From Escherichia coli (GTDB lineage Bacteria > Pseudomonadota > Gammaproteobacteria > Enterobacterales > Enterobacteriaceae), in NCBI RefSeq assembly GCF_003334255.1, contig NZ_QOWU01000007.1: DNA of 64,000 bases; one strand, given 5' to 3'. Below are positions 1-52,917 of the stretch, piece by piece (the stretch's first letter is position 1; each line of letters starts with the position of its first letter). A model generated the notes under the pieces. It ran no database searches. It saw only the letters and a list, made by a program, of their open reading frames with translations, and was not told where the DNA came from. A program made the translations under genes and the position numbers.

Positions 1-106
1 AGCGCGGTGGTCCCACCTGACCCCATGCCGAACTCAGAAGTGAAACGCCGTAGCGCCGATGGTAGTGTGGGGTCTCCTCATGCGAGAGTAGGGAACTGCC
101 AGGCAT
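1..106 (+). rRNA. rrfA: 5S ribosomal RNA, 3' portion (5' end lies upstream of window)
   Basis: Matches the conserved enterobacterial 5S rRNA 3' region (...CCGAACTCAGAAGTGAAACGCCGTAGCGCCGATGGTAGTGTGGGG...GGGAACTGCCAGGCAT) and is followed by rrn T1/T2 terminators. Operon assigned as rrnA because mobB/mobA follow. Confidence 0.9.
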
Positions 107-107
107 C

Positions 108-153
108 AAATAAAACGAAAGGCTCAGTCGGAAGACTGGGCCTTTCGTTTTAT
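108..153 (+). terminator. rrn operon terminator T1 (GC-rich hairpin plus T-run)
   Basis: AAACGAAAGGCTCAGTCGGAAGACTGGGCCTTTCGTTTTAT: perfect stem-loop followed by a U-tract, directly after the 5S end. Confidence 0.85.
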
Positions 154-282
154 CTGTTGTTTGTCGGTGAACGCTCTCCTGAGTAGGACAAATCCGCCGG
201 GAGCGGATTTGAACGTTGCGAAGCAACGGCCCGGAGGGTGGCGGGCAGGACGCCCGCCATAAACTGCCAGGCATCAAATTAA

Positions 283-314
283 GCAGAAGGCCATCCTGAC
301 GGATGGCCTTTTTG
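283..314 (+). terminator. rrn operon terminator T2
   Basis: GAAGGCCATCCTGACGGATGGCCTTTTTG hairpin plus T-run. The region 186-280 between T1 and T2 is also highly structured. Confidence 0.75.
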
Positions 315-375
315 CATTGGCGCAGAAAAAAATGCCGGATGCGACGCTGGCGCGTCTTATCCAGCCTACTCTTGC

Positions 376-903
376 TTATCCGTTCTGCTTTTGCATCCAC
401 TCCACCACAAAATCAGCCAGCCCCTCAACATCATTAATATCCAGTAATGCGACATCAAGATTAAGCGGCACATCACTGGCTACAGCAATAACATGCCTGT
501 CTATCACTAATTCTTCAGGTCGATGTCCGGCTCCATCGCGAAACAGCACAATCTTTGCGATCTCTTCATGCTTAAACCCTTCGACCAGAATCAAATCCAG
601 CTTTGAGGTATCCATTCGACTTGCGAGAAACTGTAGATCCAGCTCTTCTTCGTCTGGTGTTTCCGTCATCAAGGCCCATCGTTGCTGGCTGGCAACGATG
701 GTTTGTGCCGCGCCAGCCTTGCGCAGCTCATAGCTATCTTTGCCTGGCTTATCAACATCCATATCATGGTGCGTATGCTTAATCAGCCCTGGACGGATCC
801 CTCTGGCGCATAATGCCGGGATCAGTTTTTTCAAAAGCGTAGTTTTTCCGGTACCACTCCACGCGGCAAAGGCGAGTAACGGTATCATCGTTTTTCCTGC
901 CAT
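376..903 (-). CDS. mobB: Molybdopterin-guanine dinucleotide biosynthesis adapter protein MobB
   Basis: 175-aa track ORF with a P-loop (AWSGTGKTT). An alternative ATG at 888 forms an ATGA overlap with the mobA stop. Confidence 0.9.
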
Positions 904-1469
904 CGGGCAAGCTCCTCTGGCGTATTCACGTTAACAAATGCATCTTTATGATCGCTGAAATCAACCGCATGACCGCCAGCCAGACGCATAAATACCATTA
1001 CCCGGCGTTCTCCTGCTTGCAGATATTCCAGTAATAAAGGCTCAATAGCGCGGTTTACCAGAGCAATAGTCGGGTGATCGCGTTCACCGTCATGGACCCA
1101 CACGACAGGCGCATCTTTGCGCTGATGATTAAGCCTGGCTGCTAAATCAGGGGGAATGTAAGGCGTATCGCACGGGCAAAACAAAAACCACTCACCAGCT
1201 TCCTGCTGCATTACTGAAAGCATTCCTGCCAGAGGGCCTGGGTAATCCGCCAGTGAATCTTCAATCACTTTCAGACCGCTTGCCTGATAGATTTCCTGAT
1301 GACGATTAGCATTAACCACGACGTGAGAGAGCTGCGTCATAAGCGCGTCAGCGACATGTTGCCATAATGGTTTGCCGTTTAATTCAAGCAATCCTTTATC
1401 TACGCCGCCCATTCGTCTGGCTTTACCGCCTGCCAGCACAACGCCTGTTATCGTCGTCATCAGATTCAC
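885..1469 (-). CDS. mobA: Molybdenum cofactor guanylyltransferase MobA
   Basis: 194-aa ORF with the N-terminal [11 protein letters not shown] nucleotide-binding motif typical of MobA. Overlaps the mobB start. Confidence 0.92.
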
Positions 1470-1538
1470 CGATATCGCCTCTTTTATTGTGGGATTGACC
1501 CTGCTAACGTGTCTGTCTCAAGAGTAAGGAGCATCACT

Positions 1539-1808
1539 ATGAAATGTAAACGTCTGAATGAAGTTATTGAACTCCTCCAGCCAGCCTGGCAAAAAGAGCC
1601 AGACCTTAACCTGCTGCAATTTTTGCAGAAACTGGCGAAAGAGTCAGGTTTTGACGGCGAACTGGCGGATTTGACGGATGACATTCTGATCTATCACCTG
1701 AAAATGCGTGATTCCGCGAAAGATGCGGTGATCCCGGGTTTGCAGAAAGATTATGAAGAAGACTTCAAAACGGCGCTGTTACGCGCTCGCGGCGTAATTA
1801 AAGAGTAA
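1539..1808 (+). CDS. yihD: Small conserved protein YihD (DUF1040)
   Basis: Track ORF 1509-1808 trimmed to the internal Met ([14 protein letters not shown]...), giving 89 aa. Confidence 0.8.
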
Positions 1809-1884
1809 AAGCTTGTAAGCGGCGCCACCAAAATCATCGTGAAATGATATCCTTCGTCATTCGTAATGTTTTCCGGATGATGGG

Positions 1885-2871
1885 ATGAATAACAGCGCTT
1901 TTACTTTCCAGACACTACACCCGGATACCATCATGGACGCTCTGTTTGAGCATGGGATCCGGGTGGATTCCGGTCTTACCCCGCTTAACAGCTATGAAAA
2001 CCGTGTCTATCAATTTCAGGACGAAGATCGTCGACGTTTTGTCGTCAAATTTTATCGCCCTGAACGTTGGACAGCCGATCAAATCCTCGAAGAACATCAA
2101 TTTGCGTTGCAGCTGGTAAATGATGAAGTTCCGGTCGCAGCACCTGTGGCCTTTAACGGTCAGACTTTATTGAATCATCAGGGATTTTATTTCGCTGTTT
2201 TTCCAAGCGTCGGTGGTCGCCAGTTCGAAGCTGATAATATCGATCAGATGGAAGCGGTTGGGCGTTATTTAGGGCGTATGCACCAGACGGGGCGCAAACA
2301 GCTTTTTATCCATCGCCCGACCATCGGTTTGAACGAATATCTCATTGAGCCACGCAAGCTGTTTGAGGACGCTACACTGATACCTTCCGGGTTGAAAGCG
2401 GCATTCCTGAAAGCGACAGATGAGCTGATTGCCGCCGTTACAGCACACTGGCGGGAAGATTTCACCGTTCTGCGGCTACATGGAGACTGCCACGCCGGGA
2501 ATATTCTCTGGCGCGATGGTCCAATGTTTGTTGATCTGGATGATGCACGTAATGGTCCAGCCGTTCAGGATTTGTGGATGTTGCTCAATGGCGATAAAGC
2601 CGAGCAGCGGATGCAACTGGAAACTATTATTGAAGCTTATGAAGAATTTAGCGAGTTCGACACCGCTGAAATCGGACTGATTGAACCTTTACGCGCCATG
2701 CGTTTGGTTTATTATCTTGCCTGGCTAATGCGGCGTTGGGCTGATCCCGCGTTCCCGAAAAATTTCCCGTGGTTAACCGGGGAAGATTACTGGCTGCGAC
2801 AGACGGCGACTTTTATAGAACAGGCAAAAGTTCTACAAGAACCCCCTTTGCAATTAACACCTATGTATTAA
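1885..2871 (+). CDS. srkA: Stress response Ser/Thr protein kinase SrkA (RdoA/YihE)
   Basis: 328-aa ORF with a kinase-like fold (HGDCHAGNILW catalytic loop, DLDD). Confidence 0.9.
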   Translation: MNNSAFTFQTLHPDTIMDALFEHGIRVDSGLTPLNSYENRVYQFQDEDRRRFVVKFYRPERWTADQILEEHQFALQLVNDEVPVAAPVAFNGQTLLNHQGFYFAVFPSVGGRQFEADNIDQMEAVGRYLGRMHQTGRKQLFIHRPTIGLNEYLIEPRKLFEDATLIPSGLKAAFLKATDELIAAVTAHWREDFTVLRLHGDCHAGNILWRDGPMFVDLDDARNGPAVQDLWMLLNGDKAEQRMQLETIIEAYEEFSEFDTAEIGLIEPLRAMRLVYYLAWLMRRWADPAFPKNFPWLTGEDYWLRQTATFIEQAKVLQEPPLQLTPMY

Positions 2872-2887
2872 TCGGAGAGAGTAGATC

Positions 2888-3514
2888 ATGAAAAAGATTT
2901 GGCTGGCGCTGGCTGGTTTAGTTTTAGCGTTTAGCGCATCGGCGGCGCAGTATGAAGATGGTAAACAGTACACTACCCTGGAAAAACCGGTAGCTGGCGC
3001 GCCGCAAGTGCTGGAGTTTTTCTCTTTCTTCTGCCCGCACTGCTATCAGTTTGAAGAAGTTCTGCATATTTCTGATAATGTGAAGAAAAAACTGCCGGAA
3101 GGCGTGAAGATGACTAAATACCACGTCAACTTCATGGGTGGTGACCTGGGCAAAGATCTGACTCAGGCATGGGCTGTGGCGATGGCGCTGGGCGTGGAAG
3201 ACAAAGTGACTGTTCCGCTGTTTGAAGGCGTACAGAAAACCCAGACCATTCGTTCTGCTTCTGATATCCGCGATGTATTTATCAACGCAGGTATTAAAGG
3301 TGAAGAGTACGACGCGGCGTGGAACAGCTTCGTGGTGAAATCTCTGGTCGCTCAGCAGGAAAAAGCTGCAGCTGACGTGCAATTGCGTGGCGTTCCGGCG
3401 ATGTTTGTTAACGGTAAATATCAGCTGAATCCGCAGGGTATGGATACCAGCAATATGGATGTTTTTGTTCAGCAGTATGCTGATACAGTGAAATATCTGT
3501 CCGAGAAAAAATAA
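2888..3514 (+). CDS. dsbA: Periplasmic thiol:disulfide oxidoreductase DsbA
   Basis: 208-aa ORF with a signal peptide ([19 protein letters not shown]) and the CPHC active site ([13 protein letters not shown]). Confidence 0.97.
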
Positions 3515-3531
3515 TTCAATGTAAATTACAT

Positions 3532-3562
3532 AAAGCCCGTGAATATTCACGGGCTTTTTTTA
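3532..3562 (+). terminator. Rho-independent terminator downstream of dsbA
   Basis: AAGCCCGTGAATATTCACGGGCTTTTTTT: perfect inverted repeat plus T-run. Confidence 0.8.
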
Positions 3563-3668
3563 TTATTTAATAAATATAAATACATTCTGATAATGCATCC
3601 TGCCGCTGGACATTATTTCAGCATAAGTGGATATTCAAAGTTTTGCTGTTTTATCAGGGAATATTTAT

Positions 3669-5099
3669 ATGATACGTAAGTCAGCTACAGGTGTTATTGT
3701 TGCGTTAGCCGTAATCTGGGGTGGTGGCACATGGTACACAGGTACGCAAATTCAGCCTGGTGTCGAAAAATTTATTAAAGATTTTAACGATGCTAAAAAG
3801 AAAGGTGAACATGCCTACGATATGACGTTAAGTTATCAAAATTTTGACAAAGGCTTTTTTAATTCCCGTTTTCAAATGCAAATGACATTCGATAACGGTG
3901 CACCCGATCTCAATATCAAGCCAGGCCAGAAAGTTGTATTTGATGTGGATGTTGAGCACGGTCCGTTGCCCATCACAATGTTAATGCATGGTAATGTCAT
4001 CCCAGCACTGGCAGCGGCAAAAGTGAACTTAGTGAATAATGAACTGACACAACCGCTATTTATCGCCGCGAAAAATAAATCGCCCGTGGAAGCGACATTG
4101 CGATTCGCGTTTGGTGGCTCATTCTCTACGACATTAGATGTTGCCCCTGCAGAGTATGGAAAGTTTTCTTTTGGTGAGGGCCAGTTTACTTTTAATGGTG
4201 ATGGTAGTTCATAGTCTAACCTGGATATTGAAGGCAAAGTCGAAGATATTGTTCTGCAATTATCACCAATGAACAAAGTAACGGCAAAAAGTTTTACCAT
4301 TGATTCTCTGGCGCGATTAGAAGAAAAGAAATTTCCGGTTGGTGAAAGCGAGTCGAAATTTAATCAGATTAACATTATCAATCACGGGGAAGACGTTGCC
4401 CAAATCGATGCTTTCGTTGCAAAAACCAGGCTGGATCGCGTTAAAGACAAAGATTATATCAATGTCAATCTCACCTACGAACTTGATAAGTTAACAAAAG
4501 GGAATCAGCAACTCGGTAGTGGTGAGTGGTCATTGATTGCTGAATCTATTGATCCCTCAGCAGTGCGCCAATTTATCATCCAGTATAACATTGCGATGCA
4601 GAAGCAGCTTGCTGCACACCCTGAGTTAGCAAACGATGAAGTTGCTCTGCAAGAAGTGAATGCTGCATTGTTCAAAGAGTATTTACCGTTATTACAAAAA
4701 AGTGAGCCGACCATTAAACAACCGGTAAGATGGAAGAACGCACTCGGCGAACTAAATGCCAATCTGGATATCAGTATTGCCGACCCAGCCAAATCTTCAT
4801 CATCCACAAACAAAGATATCAAATCGCTCAATTTTGATGTGAAGTTACCGCTTAATGTCGTCACAGAAACCGCAAAACAGCTTAATTTATCTGAAGGAAT
4901 GGATGCGGAAAAAGCGCAAAAGCAGGCTGATAAACAAATCAGCGGGATGATGACATTAGGTCAGATGTTTCAGTTAATCACGATTGACAACAATACCGCC
5001 TCGCTGCAGCTGCGTTATACACCGGGTAAAGTTGTTTTTAACGGACAGGAGATGAGCGAAGAAGAATTTATGTCTCGTGCCGGACGTTTTGTTCATTAA
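3669..5099 (+). pseudogene. yihF: DUF945-family protein YihF, reading frame interrupted by an in-frame TAG at 4212-4214
   Basis: Track ORFs 3627-4214 and 4269-5099 are in the same frame and separated only by one TAG (...FNGDGSS*SNLDIEGKVEDIVLQLSPMNKV...). Read through, the product from the Met at 3669 is 476 codons, the length I recall for intact YihF. No obvious SD precedes the ATG at 4269. Confidence 0.6.
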
Positions 5100-42241: not shown

Positions 42242-45200
42242 TTACACCTTTTCCACATTCACAAGGAAGGACTTAAACTCCGGCGTCTGCGTGTTCGCAT
42301 CACCAACGAATGGCGTTAAAGTATTGGCAATAAAGCCTTTTTTAGCTACGCCTTCATAGCCCCAGTGAATCGGAATACCGATGGTATCGATATCTTTGCC
42401 GTTCGCTTTCAGCGTGCGAATACGTTTGGTCACCACCGCTTTGGCTTTGATATAGCCACGGTTGGAGGAGACTTTCACGGTATCGCCCTGGGCAATGCCA
42501 AGTTTATTCGCCAGCGACTCCCCGATTTCCACAAACTGCTCTGGCTGCAAAATCGCGTTCAACAGCGCGTGTTTGGTCCAGTAGTGGAAGTGCTCGGTCA
42601 GACGATAGGTGGTTCCGACATACGGGAACTTATCGGCTTTACCCAATGCTTCGGCGTCGTCTTTAAAGATACGTGCAGCCGGGTTCGAGATAACGTTTGG
42701 ATGCAGCGGGTTAGTTCCCAGCGGCGTTTCAAACGGCTCGTAGTGTTCCGGGAACGGACCTTCCGCCATCTTATCGAGGGCAAACAGACGCCCCATGCCT
42801 TCCTGCTGCATGATAAACGGCCCGACGCCGCTACCCGGAGGCGCTGCGCTGTAGTCCGGAATATCCCAGCCGGTCCACTTAGTGCCGTCCCATTTCAGCA
42901 ACTGACGCTTCGGATCCCACGGGTTACCCTGCGGATCTGCGGAGGCGCGGTTATACAGAATGCGGCGGTTAAGCGGCCATGCCCATGCCCAGCCCAGCGT
43001 GTTACCGAGGCCAGACGGATCGGCGTTATCACGGCGTGCCATCTGGTTGCCTTCCGGCGTCCAGCTACCGGCGAAAATCCAGCAGCCACAGGAGGTTGTA
43101 CCGTCATCGCGCAATTGGGCGAACGAACTAAGTTGTTGGCCTTTCTTGACGATAACCGCACCGGTTGCCGGATCGGTAATATCGGCCAGCGCCTTACCGT
43201 TGCTCTCCATCGCCACTTCTTCTGAAGATGGCTCATGCGGAATGGCGTAGTTCCATGTCATGTTGAGCACCTGGTCCGGGTTCGCGCCACCCTGTTCGGC
43301 ATACATCTTGCGCAAGCGCAGGAAGATACCGGAGAGGATCTCGCCGTCAGTCAGCGCAATCCCCGGGGCGTCCGCACCTTTCCAGTGCCACTGTAACCAG
43401 CGACCTGAGTTAACGATAGAACCGTTCTCTTCCGCGAAGCAGGTCGATGGCAGACGGAACACTTCGGTCTGGATCTTCGACGAGTCAACTTCGTTCAGCT
43501 CACCGTGGTTCTGCCAGAAGTTAGAGGTTTCAGTGTTCAGTGGGTCGATGGTGACGAGGAACTTCAGTTTCGACAGACAACCGATCACTTTGTTTTTGTT
43601 CGGGAATGAGGCAACAGGGTTAAAGCCCTGGCAGATATAGCCATTGACCTTGCCCTCTTTCATCATCTCGAAGTATTGCAGGACGTCGTAGCCTTTATCC
43701 CACTTCGGCAACCAGTCAAAGCCCCAGCTATTTTCCGCCGTCGCTTTATCACCAAAGAAGGCCTTCATCATAGAGACGAAGAATTTCGGGTAGTTGCCCC
43801 AGTAGTTTACCTGGCCTTCCAGCAGCGGTTTTGGCGTGTTGGCGGTAAGGTAGGTTTGCAGATCGGTCTGCTTCTCGCTTGGCAGCGTCATGTAACCTGG
43901 CAGGCTCTGCGACAGCAGCCCCAGGTCCGTCAGCCCCTGAATATTGGAGTGACCGCGCAGGGCGTTAACGCCGCCGCCTGCCATCCCCATATTGCCGAGC
44001 AGCAGCTGGATCATCGCCATCGTACGAATGTTTTGCGCACCAACGGAGTGTTGCGTCCAGCCGAGGGCATACAGGAACGAGGCAGTTTTATCGTGAGCAC
44101 TGGTTTCTGCGATGTATTCGCAGACTTTCAGGAACGCGTCTTTTGGCGTACCACAGATGTTTTCAACCACATCTGGCGTGTAGCGGGAAACGTGCTGTTT
44201 CAGCAAGTTCCACACGCAGCGCGGATGTTGCAGCGTGGTATCGCGTTTGGCGAAGCCGTTTTCGTCCAGTTCATAAGTCCAGGAGGATTTATCGTACTTG
44301 CGTTTTTCCGCGTCGTAGCCGGTGAACAGGCCATCTTCAAAGCCGTAATCCTCACGCACGATCAGGCTGGCGTTGGTATAGGCTTCGGTGTATTCGCGGT
44401 TGAATTTTTCATTGTTCAGCAGGTACAGCAATACGCCTGACAGGAAAGCAATGTCAGTACCGGAACGAATAGGGGCATAGTAGTCAGCTACCGCCGCCGT
44501 ACGCGTAAAGCGAGGATCGATCACAATCAGCTTCGCGCCGTTGTGAATTTTGGCTTCCATCGCCCAGCGGAACCCGACCGGGTGAGCTTCAGCGGCATTA
44601 CCGCCCATCACCACGACGAGGTTGGCGTTCTTGATGTCGACCCAGTGGTTGGTCATCGCACCGCGACCAAATGTTGGAGCAAGACTTGCTACCGTTGGTC
44701 CGTGTCAGACACGCGCCTGGTTGTCGACCGCGAGCATACCCAGCGCGCGGGAGAATTTTTGCGTTAAATAGCCGGTTTCGTTACTCGACGCGGAAGCACA
44801 CAGCATCCCGGTGGAGAGCCAGCGGTTAACAGTCACGCCTTCGGCGTTTTGCGCAATGTAGTTAGCATCGCGGTCTTCTTTCATCAGTTTGGCGATGCGA
44901 TCAAACGCCTCTTCCCAACTGATTTGCTGCCATTTATCAGAACCTGGCGCACGGTATTCCGGAAACTTCAGACGGCTTTCGGAGTGGATGAAATCCACCA
45001 GGCCAGCGCCTTTCGGACAAAGTGCACCGCGGTTGACCGGGTGATCCGGATCGCCTTCGATATGGAAGATAGATGCTTTGGCGTTTTTTGCTCCGTCACC
45101 GAGGCTGTACATCAACAGCCCACAGCCTACGGAACAATAGGTGCAGGTATTACGGGTTTCGCGGGTGCGCAGCAGTTTATACTGCCGGGTTTCCGCGAGT

Positions 45201-45292
45201 GCTACGCTGGGTGCAAAACCCAGTGCCGCTGCCGTGGTGCCTGCCATACCGCCAGCGCAGATCTTAAAGAACTGCCTTCTGCTGACCTGCAT
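42242..45292 (-). CDS. fdoG: Formate dehydrogenase-O catalytic subunit; selenoprotein with an in-frame UGA (Sec) at 44705-44707 and a Tat signal peptide
   Basis: Track ORFs 44705-45292 and 42242-44656 are in frame across one TGA (...DNQARV-U-HGPTVASLAPTFGRGAMTNHW...), 1016 codons in total. N-terminal twin-arginine motif (SRRQFFKICAGG). Confidence 0.95.
44655..44707 (-). other. Selenocysteine UGA codon plus downstream SECIS-like region of fdoG
   Basis: UGA followed by CACGGACCAACGGUAGCAAGUCUUGCUCC..., analogous in position to the fdhF-type bacterial SECIS directly 3' of the UGA. Confidence 0.65.
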
Positions 45293-45485: not shown

Positions 45486-46319
45486 GTGAAAAAAACACAG
45501 CGAAAAGAAATCGAAAATGTGACAAATATCACAGGTGTTCGTCAAATTGAGTTATGGCGGCGTGATGATTTACAACACCCACGGTTAGATGAGGTCGCGG
45601 AAGAAGTTCCCGTTGCGCTGGTCTACAACGGCATTTCGCATGTGGTGATGATGGCGTCGCCCAAAGACCTTGAGTACTTTGCGCTCGGTTTTTCGCTTTC
45701 CGAGGGGATTATCGAAAGTCCGCGCGATATCTTCGGCATGGATGTCGTTCCTTCCTGTAATGGTCTTGAAGTACAAATTGAGCTTTCCAGCCGCCGCTTT
45801 ATGGGGTTGAAGGAGCGCCGCCGGGCGCTGGCGGGACGTACGGGCTGTGGCGTATGCGGCGTGGAGCAACTTAATGACATCGGAAAACCGGTGCAGCCGC
45901 TACCGTTCACCCAGACGTTTGATCTCAACAAACTGGATGATGCATTACGTCATCTCAACGATTTTCAGCCAGTGGGGCAACTGACTGGTTGTACTCACGC
46001 CGCTGCCTGGATGTTGCCATCTGGCGAACTGGTCGGCGGGCATGAAGACGTGGGTCGCCATGTGGCGCTGGACAAACTGTTAGGCCGCCGGTCACAAGAA
46101 GGGGAAAGCTGGCAGCAAGGTGCGGTACTGGTTTCCAGTCGTGCCAGTTATGAAATGGTGCAAAAGTCGGCGATGTGCGGCGTAGAGATTTTGTTTGCGG
46201 TGTCTGCCGCGACCACGCTTGCTGTAGAAGTGGCTGAGCGCTGTAATCTGACACTGGTAGGTTTTTGTAAACCGGGTCGGGCAACGGTTTATACCCATCC
46301 GCAGCGTTTGAGCAATTAA
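45486..46319 (+). CDS. fdhD: Formate dehydrogenase sulfurtransferase/accessory protein FdhD
   Basis: 277-aa ORF, divergent from fdoGHI. Confidence 0.95.
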
Positions 46320-46471
46320 TTAAAATAAGTCCTGCGAAATATATTAAATTGCAGGACTTATTCATTTCGTGAATTTTATTATTTTATTTATAAACAAAAT
46401 GCGTGTAGTGGCGTTTTCTTTTTTCATTTATTATGTTCACTCTCTTATCTATATATTTATAAGGCAATTAA

Positions 46472-47527
46472 ATGAAAAGGAATTTATTATCTTCCGCTAT
46501 TATAGTCGCCATCATGTCCCTCGGTCTGACGGGTTGTGATGATAAAAAAGCCGAAACAGAAACGCTCCCGCCTGCCAATAGTCAACCTGCCGCACCAGCT
46601 CCTGAAGCGAAACCTACTGAAGCTCCCGTTGCAAAAGCAGAAGCTAAACCTGAAACACCTGCGCAACCGGTGGTCGATGAACAAGCGGTTTTCGACGAAA
46701 AAATGGATGTCTATATCAAGTGCTACAACAAGTTACAGATCCCGGTACAGCGCAGTCTGGCGCGTTATGCTGACTGGCTGAAAGATTTTAAACAGGGGCC
46801 TACCGGTGAAGAGCGTACTGTTTATGGCATCTACGGCATTAGTGAATCCAACCTCGCTGAGTGTGAAAAAGGCGTAAAAAGTGCTGTGGCGTTAACGCCT
46901 GCGCTGCAACCAATTGATGGCGTGGCGGTGAGTTATATCGATGCTGCCGTGGCGTTGGGTAATACCATTAACGAAATGGATAAATATTACACCCAGGAAA
47001 ATTATAAAGACGATGCGTTTGCGAAAGGGAAAACGCTGCACCAGACATTCTTAAAAAATCTGGAAGCCTTTGAACCTGTAGCCGAATCTTATCATGCGGC
47101 GATTCAGGAAATTAATGATAAGCGTCAGCTTGCGGAATTGAAAAATATTGAAGAAAGAGAAGGGAAAACATTCCACTACTACTCTCTGGCAGTCATGATT
47201 TCAGCGAAACAAATTAATAACCTGATATCGCAAGATAAGTTTGATGCAGAAGCGGCAATGAAGAAAGTGTCTGAACTGGAAACGCTAGTGGCGCAGGCCA
47301 AAGAAGCGGATAAAGGCGGCATGAATTTCTCGTTTATTAATTCGGCAGGCCAGTATCAACTCGAGGCTAAAAAATACGTTCGCCGCATCAGAGATAAAGT
47401 CCCGTACTCTGACTGGGATAAAGAGCAACTTCAGGACGCAAACTCAAGCTGGATGGTCGAAGACTCTTTCCCGAGAGCATTACGCGAGTACAACGAAATG
47501 GTTGATGACTATAATAGCCTGCGTTAA
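46472..47527 (+). CDS. yiiG: DUF3829-family lipoprotein YiiG
   Basis: 351-aa ORF with a signal peptide and lipobox (LGLTGC), then a Pro/Ala-rich linker. Confidence 0.85.
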   Translation: MKRNLLSSAIIVAIMSLGLTGCDDKKAETETLPPANSQPAAPAPEAKPTEAPVAKAEAKPETPAQPVVDEQAVFDEKMDVYIKCYNKLQIPVQRSLARYADWLKDFKQGPTGEERTVYGIYGISESNLAECEKGVKSAVALTPALQPIDGVAVSYIDAAVALGNTINEMDKYYTQENYKDDAFAKGKTLHQTFLKNLEAFEPVAESYHAAIQEINDKRQLAELKNIEEREGKTFHYYSLAVMISAKQINNLISQDKFDAEAAMKKVSELETLVAQAKEADKGGMNFSFINSAGQYQLEAKKYVRRIRDKVPYSDWDKEQLQDANSSWMVEDSFPRALREYNEMVDDYNSLR

Positions 47528-47545
47528 ACGTTTTTGATGATAAAT

Positions 47546-47575
47546 GCAGTGTCGGATGCGGCGCATCCGACACAG
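47546..47575. repeat. REP-like palindromic hairpin between convergent yiiG and frvR
   Basis: GCAGTGTCGGATGCGGCGCATCCGACACAG. Confidence 0.7.
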
Positions 47576-47576
47576 T

Positions 47577-49325
47577 TCACCCCTTGTGAAGTAACTCCAT
47601 AAATGCCTCATATCCTGTTAACCCGGCAATAATCTCCGCCGGATGCTGACACAATATGCTTGCCAGATAGCTAAATATTTTTAGCTCATGACGCGCATCG
47701 GCGGCGGCGCAGGCGATCAAGACATGGTTAATGACTTCGTTATTCACCTCAACTGGTTGGGCGAGGGTAATAAAAAATCCACGAAAACGTCGCTCCTGTT
47801 CGCTCCAGCAATGTGGGATGGCGAGGCGATTAACAATCAGGTTTTCACCTTCGCCTTCGCGGGCGATGATGCGTTGTGCTTCATCGGCGGTAATATGGTG
47901 TTGTGCGACTAATTGCGCACAAATTTGCCGGGTAATATGTTGCCAGCTTTCACCGCGTACATTCGAATAATGAAAACTTCCGGGGGCAGAGAAAAAACGC
48001 TCCGGCTGTTGGCGAATAAATGCCGTCGCCAGAAAATGTTTTATTTGTTCGATACCGGCAGCCGTAATGATATTTTTTACGGTGATGTAATTATTTACCG
48101 CGTCATCCAGTAAATAATGGCTGTTGTTAATGATCAATAACGGCTCAATCTCTTCGCGAATGGCAACAAGTTCGCTTAAGCTACGGGCAATAATTACCCG
48201 ACAATTTAAAACATCGCGCTCAATGGCGAGCTGATTAATAGTGGCAATCGCGTTCTGGTCCGAGAGCAAAATGATCGGCTGGCGTTCGTTTTGATGCCGC
48301 TCCAGCGCACAGGCAAAATACAAACCGATCAGATCGCTGTCGAAAAGGGGAATATCGAGCTGTTCACGCAGTAGCGTAATAAAGTGCAGACTCATATCAA
48401 AGGCCGCAGGCCAGGCGGCTTTCAGGTTATTCATGCTGCTCTGGCGGTGCTCAGCAATCCACACTGGTGCGGCAAGGCAACGTAATAAATGCCCGGTAAT
48501 ATTCTCAACCAGCTGCGCATCAATAATATTCAATGACGCGATGCCCGGCACCCTTTGCAGCAACCCCTGCACATTATCGGCTGAAATTACCTGCGCTTGC
48601 TGATGCTGTTTCTCTATCAAACCCGTCAGGGTTCTTACAGCGTTATCACCAAGAAACAGACCGCTATGTTCAACGATTTGTTTTATCTCGTCACCGGGAT
48701 ATTGCGGCCACTCATCGGTCAGTTGATTACGCAGGGCGTAAATCGCCAGAATCAGGCTGGAGAGATAATCACCCTGCATGAGCGGCCAGCGGTGTTGGTT
48801 GTCGCAGGCCGTGGATAAATGCTGAAGGTTGTCTCGTGTTATGCCCGCCAGCGGAATTAAAAACGGATCTTTGCGCAGCAAGTTCGCCAGCAAGATAACG
48901 CGTTTCTCTTCTGTCTCATCAATGAAATGGCCCAAACCAGGGCGGCTGGCCAGGCAACAAGTGCGTTCATAACGCTGTTTTAACCGGGGCAGACGCTCTG
49001 CTACCCACGTTTCTGGCAAATTAAGCGCCGAGGCGAGTTGCGCACGGGGAGTGAAAGTATTCAGTAATAACAGCGCCAGCAGCCGATCGTCGTTATCGTG
49101 CTTTTGCAGCAACTGAAAAAAGCTGCGGCGCTCGAAGATTTCCAGCTGATAGCCCGCACTACCACTGGCGAAAATGCGGGCTTTGCCGTTAAGGGTGAAG
49201 TTGAGATAGTCAATATCACGCAGGATGGTCCTGCCTGAAACGCCAGTCTGTTGCGCCAGCTCGCCAGGCGTGCGCGGCTGTTGCTCCAGCAGATCGACAA
49301 TCTTTAACTGGCGTTCGTTTAGCAT
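47577..49325 (-). CDS. frvR: Transcriptional regulator of the frv operon (HTH plus PRD/PTS-regulatory domains)
   Basis: 582-aa ORF with an N-terminal HTH (LAQQTGVSGRTILRDIDYL). Confidence 0.88.
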   Translation of the reverse strand: MLNERQLKIVDLLEQQPRTPGELAQQTGVSGRTILRDIDYLNFTLNGKARIFASGSAGYQLEIFERRSFFQLLQKHDNDDRLLALLLLNTFTPRAQLASALNLPETWVAERLPRLKQRYERTCCLASRPGLGHFIDETEEKRVILLANLLRKDPFLIPLAGITRDNLQHLSTACDNQHRWPLMQGDYLSSLILAIYALRNQLTDEWPQYPGDEIKQIVEHSGLFLGDNAVRTLTGLIEKQHQQAQVISADNVQGLLQRVPGIASLNIIDAQLVENITGHLLRCLAAPVWIAEHRQSSMNNLKAAWPAAFDMSLHFITLLREQLDIPLFDSDLIGLYFACALERHQNERQPIILLSDQNAIATINQLAIERDVLNCRVIIARSLSELVAIREEIEPLLIINNSHYLLDDAVNNYITVKNIITAAGIEQIKHFLATAFIRQQPERFFSAPGSFHYSNVRGESWQHITRQICAQLVAQHHITADEAQRIIAREGEGENLIVNRLAIPHCWSEQERRFRGFFITLAQPVEVNNEVINHVLIACAAADARHELKIFSYLASILCQHPAEIIAGLTGYEAFMELLHKG

Positions 49326-50395
49326 TAATCCACCTGACGGAACTGGCTAAACGCGTTGACTTTCTCCGCAGTTAAGGTCGTCAGAAAACCCCGTATCAGC
49401 GTGAGCAGAGCTTCGTAATCGGCTTTTGAAATCATACCGCTGTTGGCGTGCAGATAACGAGTTGGCAGACACAGCGCGACAACCGGACGCCCGCCGCCCA
49501 TCACGTTGTAGCGCCCGCCATCCGTCGCACCGGTTTTCATGGTGGAAAATTGCAGCGGTAAATCGTTATGTGCGGCACAGCTTTTTAACGCTGCTACCAG
49601 TTTCTGGTTGGGGAAGTAGCGCTTGTCAAACAGCATCAGCCCCGGCCCCTGGCCCAGTTTCAGCGGGTATTTAATGTTATCAATGCCCGGAACATCGCCC
49701 GCTACGGCGGTATCCAACACGATCACGACGTCCGGTTTAATGTGTTCCGCCGAGGTTTGCGCCCCGCGTAGCCCAACTTCTTCTTCCACACTGCCAACGC
49801 CATACAGCGTAATTTCGGGATTATTCACCGTCTGCAATAGTTCAGCCATCATTGCGCAGCCGATGCGGTTATCCAACGCCTTGCCGACCACTTTATCTTC
49901 GCCCCAGCAGGCAAAATTGGCTTCCGGGCTAATAAAATTACCAATTTCCACGCCGCGCTTTTCCACCTCTTCGCGACTGTTCGCGCCAATATCAATGAAC
50001 ATCTCATCAAATGACAGCGGTTGTTGCTTTTGCTTTTCCGTTAACGCATGAGGCGCGACGGAACCAATCACACCAGGGATTTTCACTCCCTTGTGTGTGC
50101 GTATGGTTACCCGGTGGTTGAGCATCGACTGATTCCACCAGCCGCCAATGGTGGTAAAACGCAGAAAACCGCTCTCGTCGATGTGGGTGACCATAAAGCC
50201 GACTTCATCCATATGTCCGACAACGGCAACTTTTGGACCTTTATTCCCCTTACGGGCAACAAAGCTGCCCAGACCATCGAAGGTGATTTCATTCACGCAA
50301 GGTTCCAGCGTGTTTATCAGAATGTCGCGAACTTCCTGTTCATCGCCGCTGACGGCGCTGGCTTCGCACAACTGTTGCAGTAACTCAATGTTCAT
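49325..50395 (-). CDS. frvX: M42-family metallo-aminopeptidase-like protein FrvX
   Basis: Track ORF trimmed to MNIELLQQL (356 aa) with M42 metal-ligand motifs (HMDEVGF, VGSVEEEVGLRGA). Confidence 0.88.
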   Translation of the reverse strand: MNIELLQQLCEASAVSGDEQEVRDILINTLEPCVNEITFDGLGSFVARKGNKGPKVAVVGHMDEVGFMVTHIDESGFLRFTTIGGWWNQSMLNHRVTIRTHKGVKIPGVIGSVAPHALTEKQKQQPLSFDEMFIDIGANSREEVEKRGVEIGNFISPEANFACWGEDKVVGKALDNRIGCAMMAELLQTVNNPEITLYGVGSVEEEVGLRGAQTSAEHIKPDVVIVLDTAVAGDVPGIDNIKYPLKLGQGPGLMLFDKRYFPNQKLVAALKSCAAHNDLPLQFSTMKTGATDGGRYNVMGGGRPVVALCLPTRYLHANSGMISKADYEALLTLIRGFLTTLTAEKVNAFSQFRQVD

Positions 50396-51836
50396 GGACA
50401 AGCTCCTGTTGCGCGGCTTTCGCTTTGCGGCGTAACCACAATCCTTTCAGGACGATAATGAATGAAATGTTCAGCGCGAGGCCAATCGCCAGCACCAGAT
50501 AAAACGAACCCACCGGCGACATCAGGCCGATCAGCGGGTCAAAGATACCCAAACCAGGTGCCAGACGTTTGATTCCGAAAGCGATCACCAGCACGCCGGT
50601 AATGCCGCCCGCCAGCGTATTGGCGGTAATCATCGGCAACGGAGCTGCCAGAGCGTAAGGAATAGCCGGTTCGGTTGCGACTGTGGCACCGACCACAATG
50701 GCACTACTGGCAGCCTCTTTTTCCTGTCGGGTAAACAGTTTGGGCGCAATGAACGTCGCAAGACCCGCCGCGACGGGCGGCATCAGCGCGACAACGCCGA
50801 CGATGGCGTACCAGTCATAAATGTGTTTTTCCAGCAGTGAGAAGCAGAAGAACCAGGCGGTTTTATTGATGGGGCCGCCCATATCGAACGCCAGCATCGC
50901 ACCGACCAGAAACGCTGCCGCAAACTTCATTGATGGAGGAATGGTATTCAGGAAGTGGAGCAGCCCGCCCATGAGGTCGGACATCACCGGCCCGATAACG
51001 TAGTAAGTGAGCACGCCGAAAACCAGCAGAGTAACGAACGGGATCAGCATTGAACCGAGCAGCGGTTGTAATGCTTTGCCAAGGCGCACTTTGCGGAACC
51101 AGAAGACGAAATAGCCAATCGCCAGCCCCAGCACCACCGCGCCGAGGAATCCCGCACCCGACTGGGTGCCGAGCAGCGCTTTGTCGTTCGCCAGATAGCA
51201 AACCAGAAACGCCGGAGCGAAAGCCGGTTTATCGGCAATCGACGAGGCAATATAAGCGCCCATGATGGGGATCATAAAGGTGAAGCCAAGGTAACCGATG
51301 GATTCAACTACCCAGGTAAACGACGGCGCGCCTTTCGACATATCGGTATACGGCAAACCGAACTGCACCAGCATGTTGGCAAGCGCCACCAGGATACCAC
51401 CGCCGATGACAAACGGCAGCGCCGCAGAGACGCCCGCCATCAGGTGGCTCATCACGCTACCGCTTTGCACTTCCTGTTTGCCAAGCTTCACGCCGCTATC
51501 TGCGGCAAAAAGCTGCGAGTTTGTCGGTAATTCGCTGAAAATCTGGTCGATATTTTTCAACGCCTGGGAGATGGCAATCTCATAAACTTTCTTCCCGGCA
51601 AACCGCGCGCGATCATCACCGCTCAGGCCACGCCCGGTAGCGAGAATGACGTAATCGGCAGCGGCAATCTCTTCGCTGGATAAGCGGTTTTCAACGCCAC
51701 TGGACCCTTGAGTTTCCACTTTTATGGTATGACCGAGAGAACGGGCTTTCTGTTCCAGGGCTTCCGCCACCATGTAGGTGTGAGCGATCCCGGCGGGGCA
51801 GTTGGTGATCGCGACAATACGTAAGGATGACTCCAT
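50385..51836 (-). CDS. frvB: PTS fructose-like EIIBC component
   Basis: Track ORF trimmed to MESSLRIVAITNCPAGIAHT (483 aa). EIIB cysteine motif followed by a polytopic EIIC domain. Confidence 0.9.
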   Translation of the reverse strand: MESSLRIVAITNCPAGIAHTYMVAEALEQKARSLGHTIKVETQGSSGVENRLSSEEIAAADYVILATGRGLSGDDRARFAGKKVYEIAISQALKNIDQIFSELPTNSQLFAADSGVKLGKQEVQSGSVMSHLMAGVSAALPFVIGGGILVALANMLVQFGLPYTDMSKGAPSFTWVVESIGYLGFTFMIPIMGAYIASSIADKPAFAPAFLVCYLANDKALLGTQSGAGFLGAVVLGLAIGYFVFWFRKVRLGKALQPLLGSMLIPFVTLLVFGVLTYYVIGPVMSDLMGGLLHFLNTIPPSMKFAAAFLVGAMLAFDMGGPINKTAWFFCFSLLEKHIYDWYAIVGVVALMPPVAAGLATFIAPKLFTRQEKEAASSAIVVGATVATEPAIPYALAAPLPMITANTLAGGITGVLVIAFGIKRLAPGLGIFDPLIGLMSPVGSFYLVLAIGLALNISFIIVLKGLWLRRKAKAAQQELVHEH

Positions 51837-51846
51837 CGCCACTTCC

Positions 51847-52293
51847 TTATGAGCTGAGGGTTTGATTTAACAAGGCAAGCACCTGGTCGGTATCGCCCTG
51901 TTGCAGTTGATGAATAAATTCCTTGTGAATAATTTTGCGACACAGTGTGCCGATGATTTTGACCTGATCCTCTTCGCCGCTTTGCGGCACGCCGAGGCAG
52001 ATCCAGCAATTGACGTCTTCGCCATCGCTGGCTTTCCAGTCAATAGCCTGCGCTTTGCGGGCGAATAATACGAACGGTTGTTTAACGCAGGCGCTTTTAC
52101 CGTGCGGCACGGCGACACCGGAACCAAATCCAGTAGAGTGCATTTTTTCGCGCAGCAGCAGGGTTTGCAGGAACTGGTGTGAGTCGGTGATAAAACCGTT
52201 TTGTAACGCTATTGTCGCCAACTGCTTCAGAACGGAATAAGCGCCATTGCCCTGAATATTCAGGTCAATACAGCTTGCAGTAAGAGCTGCCAT
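51847..52293 (-). CDS. frvA: PTS fructose-like EIIA component
   Basis: 148-aa ORF. Confidence 0.9.
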   Translation of the reverse strand: MAALTASCIDLNIQGNGAYSVLKQLATIALQNGFITDSHQFLQTLLLREKMHSTGFGSGVAVPHGKSACVKQPFVLFARKAQAIDWKASDGEDVNCWICLGVPQSGEEDQVKIIGTLCRKIIHKEFIHQLQQGDTDQVLALLNQTLSS

Positions 52294-52593
52294 TAATCGG
52301 ACTCCATAAAATATATTTTAATCAATTGTAATGGTGGAGCGATTAAGTGATGAGAGGCGATATGTCGGTAAACAATGACAATTTGAGACAGAGTGAAAGG
52401 TCAGATTTGCGGAGTAATGCACATAATGGTTATTTAAATAAACCACATGAATCATTAATGGGTTATTCATTATTTTTGTGATTTACTCACAATGTATCAG
52501 GGAAATATAACTTACCGGGAGATGTAATATGTTTAATTTTTCAAATCGAAATTTAAAATATTGTGCCGGAGGCATCTCTGGCACATTGGGCAA

Positions 52594-52908
52594 TTACGGC
52601 AGGTAAAACACTTCTTGCAGCTCGCTACTCACCGGGCTGTTATCCGGGTTAGCGGGCATAACATCGGTCATATATTTCCACCAACGTTGGCAAACATCAG
52701 TGCTGGCAACCGCATTCCAGCGTTCTTCAGATTCAATCTCTACCATGGCAAACAGCAGATTACGCGCTTTGTCGAGATAGATGGCGTAGTTATGCGCACC
52801 GTGAGATTTCAGCACTGCTTCCAGTTCTGGCCAGATGGGATTATGCCGACGCTGATACTCTTCGTGGGCGTCGGGGTTTACCTGCATGACAAAGGCTTTG
52901 CGGATCAT
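52594..52908 (-). CDS. rhaM: L-rhamnose mutarotase
   Basis: 104-aa ORF ([30 protein letters not shown]...). Confidence 0.93.
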
Positions 52909-52917
52909 GTTTGCTCC

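Follow-up and report, generated by a model that had tools for sequence, protein, structure and literature searches.

The frvABXR operon of Escherichia coli occupies positions 47577 to 52293, on the minus strand, of the 64,000-nucleotide stretch of contig NZ_QOWU01000007.1 that was analyzed here (hereafter the window), and encodes two components of a phosphotransferase system (PTS), FrvA and FrvB, a homologue of the M42 peptidases, FrvX, and a regulator, FrvR. From sequence comparisons with related loci it is proposed, at about even chances of being correct, that FrvAB represents a PTS for a sugar conjugated to an amino acid or peptide, that FrvX processes the peptide part of this conjugate, and that FrvR is an MtlR-like regulator. 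According to this proposal, FrvAB would import a sugar to which an amino acid or short peptide is attached and phosphorylate it, and in the cytoplasm FrvX would then take off the N-terminal or aminoacyl residue(s), while in the related cassettes of Bacilli a MalY/PatB-like pyridoxal phosphate (PLP)-dependent beta-lyase, often with an M42 or a PepT-like M20 aminopeptidase, would complete the breakdown of the amino-acid part. FrvR would activate the frvA promoter from a TTGTCA-N8/9-TGACAA palindrome located just upstream of a weak -35 element, presumably assisted by CRP in enterobacteria. PTS-dependent phosphoryl transfer to His279, in the second PTS regulation domain (PRD2), and to His505, in the enzyme IIA (EIIA) domain, would switch FrvR in the manner of Bacillus subtilis MtlR, and induction would depend on the substrate being present and the general PTS being free.

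The proposed class of substrate is based on the observation that the only enzymes accompanying the transporter in such cassettes are MalY/PatB lyases and clan-MH peptidases, with no sugar-phosphate enzyme, and on the independent recurrence of a PTS with a peptidase or lyase in the fry, sgc and malX-malY operons and in Lactobacillus sakei.

Organization of the frv operon

Four co-oriented minus-strand open reading frames (ORFs) in the ORF listing of the window occupy the interval exactly, two gene starts having been corrected using NCBIfam profiles and RefSeq. These are frvA (52293-51847; 148 aa), encoding a PTS EIIA of the fructose/mannitol/Ntr type; frvB (51836-50385; 483 aa), encoding a fructose-family EIIBC; frvX (50395-49325; 356 aa), encoding a homologue of the M42 (TET-type) dinuclear metallo-aminopeptidases; and frvR (49325-47577; 582 aa), encoding a predicted MtlR-class regulator. 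All four products score above the cutoff of the corresponding NCBIfam equivalog model, with 290 bits for FrvA (NF007389, cutoff 151), 1034 for FrvB (NF008493, cutoff 806), 844 for FrvX (NF007367, cutoff 569) and 1050 for FrvR (NF007366, cutoff 426). Furthermore, megablast identified several E. coli chromosomes that are 100% identical to this region, where RefSeq places frvA, frvB, frvX and frvR between rhaM and yiiG. As read from the sequence, frvA and frvB are separated by a 10-nt gap with an AGGAAG Shine-Dalgarno motif, the start of frvX overlaps the end of frvB by 11 nt, and frvX and frvR overlap by 1 nt (TAATG), these junctions being translationally coupled. The first-pass annotation of this DNA, which had described a co-oriented and tightly packed set of an EIIA gene, an EIIBC gene, an M42-type frvX and frvR, is thereby confirmed by ORFs, junctions and profiles alike.

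Enzymes of the Frv-type cassettes

Eleven non-redundant FrvR-type cassettes were collected from the contigs of FrvR-family representatives, a family for which about 30 full-length clusters exist. EIIA, EIIBC and FrvR are present in all eleven, together with a small and restricted set of enzymes. The Enterobacteriaceae and Hafnia cassettes carry an M42 peptidase, and those of two Listeria groups an M42 peptidase and a PatB-like lyase; three others (L092, L095 and L099) possess the lyase only, while those of Granulicatella (L093), Enterococcus (L096) and L097 combine the lyase with an M20 peptidase, and L098, which lies on a short contig, carries M20 only. The sole accompanying enzymes are thus MalY/PatB-like C-S lyases (8/11) and clan-MH peptidases (8/11, comprising four M42 and four M20 members), and the exchange of M42 for M20 puts a non-orthologous enzyme in charge of the same kind of step. 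No kinase, isomerase, aldolase, dehydrogenase or glycosidase, and no sugar-phosphate enzyme, was found in the 11 cassettes.

The assignment of the lyases is supported by their scores against TIGR04350 (PatB C-S lyase, cutoff 340), which five of six exceed (362, 387, 380, 372, 365 and 325 bits), by 37-45% identity to E. coli MalY, their best match in the Protein Data Bank (PDB), and by the invariance of S230, S232 and the PLP lysine K233 (MalY numbering). The two M20 proteins checked, out of four, are "peptidase T-like" (PepT-like). In each of the eight lyase-bearing cassettes the lyase gene directly adjoins frvR, while positions 47577-52293 of the E. coli window hold no MalY/PatB lyase gene.

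This adjacency bears on an alternative explanation, namely that FrvX and the MalY-like lyases of the sibling cassettes are regulatory "trigger" enzymes, which make or destroy the inducer or bind FrvR directly, as MalY binds MalT, and have no catabolic role. The K-12 annotation of MalY as both a negative regulator of MalT and a cystathionine beta-lyase (see also PMC5845896) and the 1-nt overlap of E. coli frvX with frvR speak in its favour, as does the invariable position of the lyase gene; yet strict conservation of the FrvX catalytic residues (see below) and of the PLP lysine in the lyases indicates that enzyme activity is under selection, and the cassettes hold no other enzyme able to act on an imported compound. 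We consider this explanation decidedly unlikely.

Pairs of PTS and lyase genes akin to those of the Bacilli cassettes are found elsewhere. In E. coli K-12, malY follows the PTS gene malX, while a cluster of L. sakei LT-13 comprises PRD regulators, two aminopeptidases, a Lac-family PTS and MalY (PMC5845896). Both systems place a PTS beside a MalY/PatB-family PLP beta-lyase, although their transporters belong to the Glc or Lac family rather than to the Fru family, and E. coli frv is itself without a lyase. A gene for an RDD-family membrane protein lies directly upstream of the Frv-type cassette of L098 (positions 577-1215), and an RDD-family gene also occurs inside the L. sakei cluster (PMC5845896). 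The combination of peptidase and PatB lyase is furthermore known from the thioalcohol pathway of Staphylococcus hominis, in which, according to the abstracts, a dipeptidase and then a PatB C-S lyase degrade the cysteine S-conjugated peptide Cys-Gly-3M3SH (PMC7385124, PMC11742315). That substrate differs from the one proposed here in being a secreted dipeptide conjugate; the same abstracts mention no PTS, and an MtlR-class regulator is not part of the gene organisation.

The FrvX peptidase homologue

FrvX matches the Pfam family Peptidase_M42 (PF05343) at 2e-102, and its best solved relatives are B. subtilis YsdC (PDB 1vhe, 1e-86) and the archaeal TET peptidase PhTET2 (PDB 1y0r, 4e-67). In a HMMER alignment, FrvX H61, D175, E205, E206, D228 and H316 correspond to PhTET2 H68, D182, E212, E213, D235 and H323, of which E212 is the catalytic base and the other five are metal ligands. 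All six residues are invariant in FrvX orthologs, YpdE and SgcX, and among 87 M42 sequences conservation reaches at least 97% for five of them. The comparison of the active site with M42 peptidases, which the first-pass annotation had put forward as a check, thus reveals the full six-residue M42 centre, and this complete and conserved centre makes FrvX very probably an active metallohydrolase.

In its family and its catalytic and metal-binding residues FrvX therefore resembles the TET/M42 aminopeptidases PhTET2, YsdC and E. coli YpdE; it differs from them in that its clade is PTS-linked and carries substitutions fixed at positions nearly invariant in free-standing enzymes. When 12 PTS-linked sequences, ranging from Enterobacteriaceae to Listeria, were compared with 73 free-standing M42 proteins, three changes (Q to H94, R to K123 and H to N297) were found to be fixed in the FrvX clade at positions that are 96-97% conserved in the free-standing group. 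The clade also has A317, adjoining the ligand H316. These differences suggest that the FrvX clade is a specialised M42 subfamily.

Length variants of FrvX were also noted (P0068, P0072, P0085, P0116, P0001 and P0074): those of Shigella dysenteriae and S. boydii measure only 299-302 aa, one 488-aa E. coli protein appears to be an frvB-frvX fusion, and others of 417-450 aa have added N-terminal domains (PF18076, PF05063).

A second alternative, reflecting an old CelM/endoglucanase annotation, is that FrvX is a glycoside hydrolase cleaving a phosphorylated glycoside imported by FrvAB. An M42 endocellulase is reportedly described in one study (PMC7054444), and the names "endoglucanase" and "aminopeptidase/glucanase homolog" persist in PDB and other database entries and in the sgcX product name. 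FrvX nevertheless has the full dinuclear metallopeptidase centre, and the enzymes that accompany the PTS in sibling cassettes have amino acids or peptides as substrates. Moreover, M42 proteins annotated as cellulases have been characterised as aminopeptidases, and the title of the paper concerned calls the cellulase annotation erroneous (PMC3511314). We regard a glycosidase role as very improbable.

Association of M42 genes with phosphotransferase systems

The first-pass annotation had remarked that PTS systems usually pair with sugar-phosphate hydrolases or isomerases, not with M42 enzymes. The pairing is not peculiar to the frv locus: all three K-12 M42 paralogs, frvX, ypdE and sgcX, lie in PTS operons, in contrast to free-standing M42 genes elsewhere. 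The two further operons, fryB-fryC-ypdF-ypdE-fryA and sgcX-sgcB-sgcC-sgcQ-sgcA-sgcE-sgcR, are, like frv, orphan PTS operons with one M42 paralog each. They differ from frv in PTS family (Gat for sgc), in regulators and in extra genes (sgcQ, sgcE and fryA), while the fry operon also carries the Xaa-Pro aminopeptidase YpdF. Since YpdE and SgcX are only 36% and 29% identical to FrvX, respectively, these PTS associations are either old or independent.

Among the 80 best M42 loci of species-representative genomes, Frv-type neighbours occur at only seven, which are the seven with at least 64% FrvX identity. At the other 73 (approximately 40% identity) no Fru-, Gat- or Mtl-type PTS neighbour was found within 10 kb, these being the types used as queries, so that PTS of the Glc, Man and Lac families would be missed. 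PatB- or PepT-like genes are not general neighbours of M42 genes either. Adjacency to such a PTS as a general property of the M42 family is ruled out by these 73 loci; on the sequences compared, the PTS link appears to belong to the FrvX clade and not to the family at large. At two loci from metagenome-assembled genomes (MAGs), one of Zixibacteria (L043, 11060-11911) and one other (L047, 11067-11915), the M42 gene is directly followed by an SgcQ-like gene although no PTS is present in the vicinity, which hints at an M42-SgcQ functional pair that is independent of a PTS and echoes the E. coli sgcX...sgcQ arrangement.

The same data bear on a more conventional explanation, in which the cargo of FrvAB is an ordinary fructose-like sugar and FrvX, a general aminopeptidase of the cytoplasm, is merely co-transcribed, for example to supply amino acids during use of that carbon source. 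The closest relatives of FrvX are indeed free-standing, housekeeping-type M42 enzymes such as YsdC, the 73 free-standing genes have no Fru- or Gat-type PTS neighbour, and YpdE has been reported as an aminopeptidase (PMC3511314). On the other hand, frvX, whose start and stop codons overlap those of its neighbours, has stayed in the cassette despite relocation and transfer across phyla (see below), sibling cassettes swap in another aminopeptidase family rather than showing random loss, the three distantly related E. coli M42 paralogs all reside in PTS operons, and the clade-specific H94, K123 and N297 occupy otherwise highly conserved positions. Taken together, these observations render the explanation unlikely, though it deserves to be taken seriously.

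The transporter FrvAB

FrvA also matches TIGR00848 (147 bits, cutoff 103.5) and has His64 within the motif GVAVPHG; the His of the G-x-A-[IV]-P-H motif is the EIIA phosphorylation site, and His64 is predicted to be of the phosphorylatable type. FrvB matches TIGR00829 (103 bits, cutoff 77) and TIGR01427 (196 bits, cutoff 158), with Cys13 in the EIIB motif NCPAGIAHT. It is neither a FruA nor a MngA equivalog, as it scores 271 bits against NF007984 (cutoff 793) and 255 against the MngA model (cutoff 763), and by these profile scores constitutes a distinct subfamily of fructose-family EIIBC proteins. As FrvB is about equally far from FruA and MngA, the term "fructose-like" is a family label that is uninformative with regard to substrate.

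The closest logic for a Fru-family PTS combined with a hydrolase, as in frv, is that of E. coli mngAB, where a fructose-family PTS imports 2-O-alpha-mannosyl-D-glycerate, which is then cleaved by the cytoplasmic hydrolase MngB; MngB, however, is a glycosidase and not a peptidase.

FrvB is 77-78% identical to the EIIBC of Listeria cassettes. In comparisons of E. coli with L016 and L090, between phyla, conservation was found to be very uneven across the cassette, at 77-78% identity for FrvB, 60-64% for FrvX, 38-39% for FrvA and 32-36% for FrvR, so that the transporter is either unusually constrained or, compared with the regulator and EIIA, was exchanged at a later time.

FrvR, a reduced MtlR-class regulator by predicted fold

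In Pfam searches FrvR matches only HTH_11 (residues 5-60, 8e-10) and PTS_EIIA_2 (residues 455-560, 3e-13); PRD (PF00874) is not matched even at E<=10, and a search against PDB sequences returned nothing at E<=1. The FrvR family is small, a set of 1.84 billion proteins yielding 195 cluster representatives at E<=1e-3. In an alignment of 34 members, PF00874 is matched at E<=1e-3 in two, while Mga or HTH_Mga matches occur in up to ten at E<=0.1.

An AlphaFold (AF2) model built from this alignment (pLDDT 88) predicts two winged helix-turn-helix (wHTH) domains (residues 1-63 and 66-135), two PRD-like helical domains (139-245 and 249-346), an EIIB-like alpha/beta domain (349-440) and an EIIA domain (451-581). 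The best Foldseek matches of this model are MgaSpn, the Enterococcus faecalis Mga-family protein 3sqn, AtxA and AcpB (1e-10 to 1e-5), with the first three at 1e-10 to 1e-9 over approximately 480 columns; TM-scores to these regulators are low (0.36-0.46), probably owing to differing domain orientations. The C-terminus matches EIIA-Ntr and EIIA-Mtl structures. Furthermore, FrvR is colinear over its full length (BLASTP, 3e-16) with the 643-aa protein P0229, in which Pfam recognises HTH_11, Mga, PRD, PRD (1.6e-17), PTS_IIB and EIIA_2. This corresponds to the architecture of MtlR, which consists of HTH_11, an Mga-type HTH, PRD1, PRD2, an EIIB-Gat-like and an EIIA-Mtl-like domain (PMC8560693).

Membership of the Mga/AtxA class was considered for FrvR and rejected: these virulence regulators end after the EIIB-like domain, without a C-terminal EIIA (PMC8560693), while FrvR possesses the PTS_EIIA_2 domain. 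The modelled fold and the colinear homology rather identify FrvR as a predicted reduced MtlR-class regulator. The term "PRD-containing", applied to frvR in the first-pass annotation, accordingly stands at the level of fold and remote homology (Foldseek, P0229) and fails at that of Pfam profiles.

The canonical phosphorylatable set of such regulators comprises two His per PRD, the EIIB Cys and the EIIA His (in MtlR, H342, H399, C419 and H599). When aligned via P0229, its closest canonical relative, not via MtlR itself, FrvR has H279 as the first PRD2 His and H505 as the EIIA His, both invariant in the 34 family members, while Tyr336 takes the place of the second PRD2 His and Ser355 that of the EIIB Cys. 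Compared with B. subtilis MtlR, which has the same domain order, FrvR is about 100 residues shorter, is without a Pfam-detectable PRD and retains only one PRD2 His; the target operons differ as well, frv carrying a peptidase where mtlAFD carries a sugar-phosphate dehydrogenase. In L097 (positions 1-3672), a second PTS (EIIB, EIIC) with a canonical 638-aa HTH_11-PRD-EIIA_2 regulator adjoins the Frv-type cassette, and full MtlR-class and reduced FrvR-type regulators thus coexist side by side.

The frvA promoter and a predicted FrvR operator

When the 330-nt regions preceding frvA in nine enterobacterial genera were aligned, five blocks proved alignable, namely a CRP-like site, an inverted repeat, CTCAKC, TAnnAT and GGAG, between unalignable flanks. 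The GGAG block precedes the frvA start codon. The inverted repeat, which has the block form TTGTCA-N8/9-GACAT, is represented in the window by TTGTCATTGTTTACCGACAT (52362-52381, minus strand), an imperfect palindrome that ends 8 nt upstream of the predicted -35 and is termed the Frv box.

The pattern TGTCA-N8-10-[TCG]GACA occurs exactly upstream of the EIIA gene at 8/9 enterobacterial and 5/9 Bacilli loci, with one-mismatch versions in four more loci and a half-site array in L096. Its chance rate in shuffled sequence is about one per 64-kb window, or approximately 0.005 per 330 nt, and it recurs although identity among the regulators is only about 21-40%. In B. subtilis, the MtlR operator TTGTCACAGTCATGTGCCAA likewise lies upstream of the -35, and mutating its palindrome abolished PmtlA activity (PMC3217849). 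Its form, TTGTCAC-N6-GTGNCAA, is the same as that of the Frv box, which by this analogy and its conservation is predicted to be the FrvR operator. A second match in the window, TGTCAATCAGATTGCTGACA at 39453-39472 with N10 spacing, was taken as a chance occurrence, given that about one is expected per window. This match is situated in a stretch devoid of ORFs, past a small ribbon-helix-helix-like ORF (39197-39439) and before REP-type repeats.

A candidate CRP site, TGTGCATTACTCCGCA (52408-52423, minus strand), matches TGTGA-N6-TCACA at 7/10 positions, and the corresponding sites of Hafnia and Superficieibacter at 9/10. The motif [TC]GTG-N8-C[AG]CA is found 42-43 nt upstream of the Frv box in 9/9 enterobacterial loci and is absent from the Bacilli loci examined; a role for CRP at 52408-52423 is predicted. 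The predicted sigma-70 promoter (52325-52353, minus strand) consists of a weak -35, TCATCA (52353-52348), a 17-nt spacer and the -10 TACAAT (52330-52325), and is supported by the conserved TAnnAT hexamer and the CTCAKC block at the -35; the transcription start is predicted at about 52318. A consensus promoter scan called no sigma-70 site in the rhaM-frvA spacer, which would fit an activator-dependent promoter.

Distribution, selection and mobility

The complete frv locus is present in 4185 of 5426 complete E. coli genomes (approximately 77%) and absent from the remaining 23% or so. Nei-Gojobori estimates of dN/dS for all four genes, with Citrobacter, Kluyvera, Superficieibacter and another enterobacterium as partners, range from 0.03 to 0.14, and the operon is accessory but maintained, under purifying selection.

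The same four genes in the same order are located between xdh-like genes and ispH in Hafnia, and the four are also found between azlCD and fimbrial genes in Enterobacter and beside yet other neighbours in Buttiauxella. In the scan of species-representative genomes, Listeria newyorkensis was found to carry FrvX (64% identical) beside FrvA, FrvB (77% identical) and FrvR. These comparisons show frvABXR to be a self-contained module with horizontal mobility that has crossed phyla. That the four genes move intact between unrelated neighbourhoods and across phyla strengthens the earlier idea of an undescribed PTS-coupled pathway.

In strain UTI89 (L008, 5488-7924) a carbohydrate porin gene replaces frv, between a frameshifted, decayed yiiG and rhaM, the yiiG-rhaM site being a replacement hot-spot. 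In strain CH459 (NZ_CM166353.1) an IS4-like ISVsa5 transposase is inserted in the frv region.

FrvX is in use as an E. coli antigen to which both serum reactivity and Th17 responses are raised in Crohn's disease (PMC6204372), which implies that it is made in the gut. Together with the dN/dS values and the conserved promoter region, this finding does not support the label "cryptic", in the sense of silent or decaying, that the first-pass annotation had given the operon. In keeping with that label, the operon could be a silent evolutionary relic without current function in E. coli, as suggested by its absence from part of the genomes, the porin gene at its site in UTI89, the existence of an IS insertion and of truncated or fused variants, the weaker E. 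coli operator and CRP half-sites, and the lack of a strong consensus sigma-70 promoter call. Purifying selection on all four genes across Enterobacteriaceae, reading frames that are all intact in thousands of genomes, a conserved promoter architecture and the FrvX-specific antibody and Th17 responses of patients, with the gut expression these imply, speak against this possibility, to which we attach very little probability.

Weighing the proposed function

Several points weigh against a conjugated sugar as the substrate of FrvAB. The proposed pathway is drawn from gene neighbourhood in 11 cassettes, and the E. coli cassette has neither a lyase nor a sugar-releasing enzyme, leaving the encoded pathway incomplete. 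MalY is known above all for its regulation of MalT, and the cassette lyases could therefore be regulatory and not catabolic. The similar distance of FrvB from FruA and MngA says nothing about a conjugate, and E. coli has weaker versions of both the Frv box (right half CCGACAT) and the CRP site than other genera, which would fit the low laboratory expression implied by the label "cryptic". Finally, YpdE, the only one of the E. coli M42 paralogs reported as characterised, has been described as an ordinary aminopeptidase (PMC3511314).

More tentatively, the Frv-type cassettes may represent a class of PTS for sugars linked to amino acids or short peptides, in which an M42 or PepT-like aminopeptidase trims the peptide and a MalY-like beta-lyase eliminates the amino acid, with the same logic applying to Fry/YpdEF, Sgc/SgcX, MalX/MalY and the L. 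sakei cluster; this broader generalization is speculative, and we think it somewhat doubtful. Peptides with S- or O-glycosyl cysteine or serine, and aminoacyl-amino-sugars, would be examples of such substrates. As specific substrates, bacillithiol, Amadori compounds and S-/O-glycosyl amino acids were considered; the data favour none over the others, and none is claimed.

Features flanking the operon

A hairpin followed by a T-rich run lies 3' of rhaM (52562-52585, minus strand; -14.1 kcal/mol, z = -2.45) and is likely the rhaM terminator, insulating frv transcription. At the opposite end, an 11-bp-stem hairpin, GTGTCGGATGCGCCGCATCCGACAC (47549-47573), is situated 4 nt past the frvR stop, between the convergent frvR and yiiG. 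Its fold z-scores are -3.0 on the minus and -3.9 on the plus strand, its T-run is weak, and it may function as a terminator. A consensus scan called no terminators at the operon ends, for which folding analysis was used instead, and no Rfam family was matched in 46000-53200 at E<=0.1.

The G+C content of the 300-nt rhaM-frvA spacer (52294-52593) is 33%, while the operon has 52.5% and the window 50.6%. Silencing by nucleoid proteins typically affects AT-rich tracts of this kind, and it may be conjectured that the AT-richness of this spacer contributes to low laboratory expression by this route.

Outside the operon, a 195-aa ORF with a twin-arginine signal (MQVSRRQFFKICAGG...) at 44705-45292 (minus strand) ends at an in-frame stop, where RefSeq gives, for this interval and the sequence upstream, a single 3051-nt coding sequence for a formate dehydrogenase alpha subunit (labelled fdnG/fdoG). 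The split ORF fits selenocysteine (TGA) recoding, broken up by mechanical ORF listing.

Significance

The frvABXR operon bears a name and an annotation in every reference E. coli genome, and the arrangement described in the first-pass annotation is as such already known. The statement made there, that the substrate and the role of FrvX are undefined, agrees with the literature searched, which defines neither; a 2023 review lists frvA and frvB as "putative, fructose-like", and no paper found assigns a substrate for frv, fry, sgc, ypdE or the MalY-associated PTS. The predicted FrvR operator, the reduced MtlR-type architecture of FrvR and the restriction of Frv cassettes to aminopeptidase- and MalY-type enzymes are offered as leads, not discoveries.

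The operon is one of several named K-12 PTS operons without a known substrate, others including fry, sgc, frw and malXY, and a testable substrate class, a predicted operator and candidate regulatory histidines in FrvR would make such an orphan PTS approachable. As FrvX is a Crohn's-associated E. coli antigen, the timing of its expression in the gut is of some medical interest. If the substrate is indeed a glyco-amino acid or glycopeptide, this would widen the substrate range of the PTS and provide a physiological role for MalY-like lyases.

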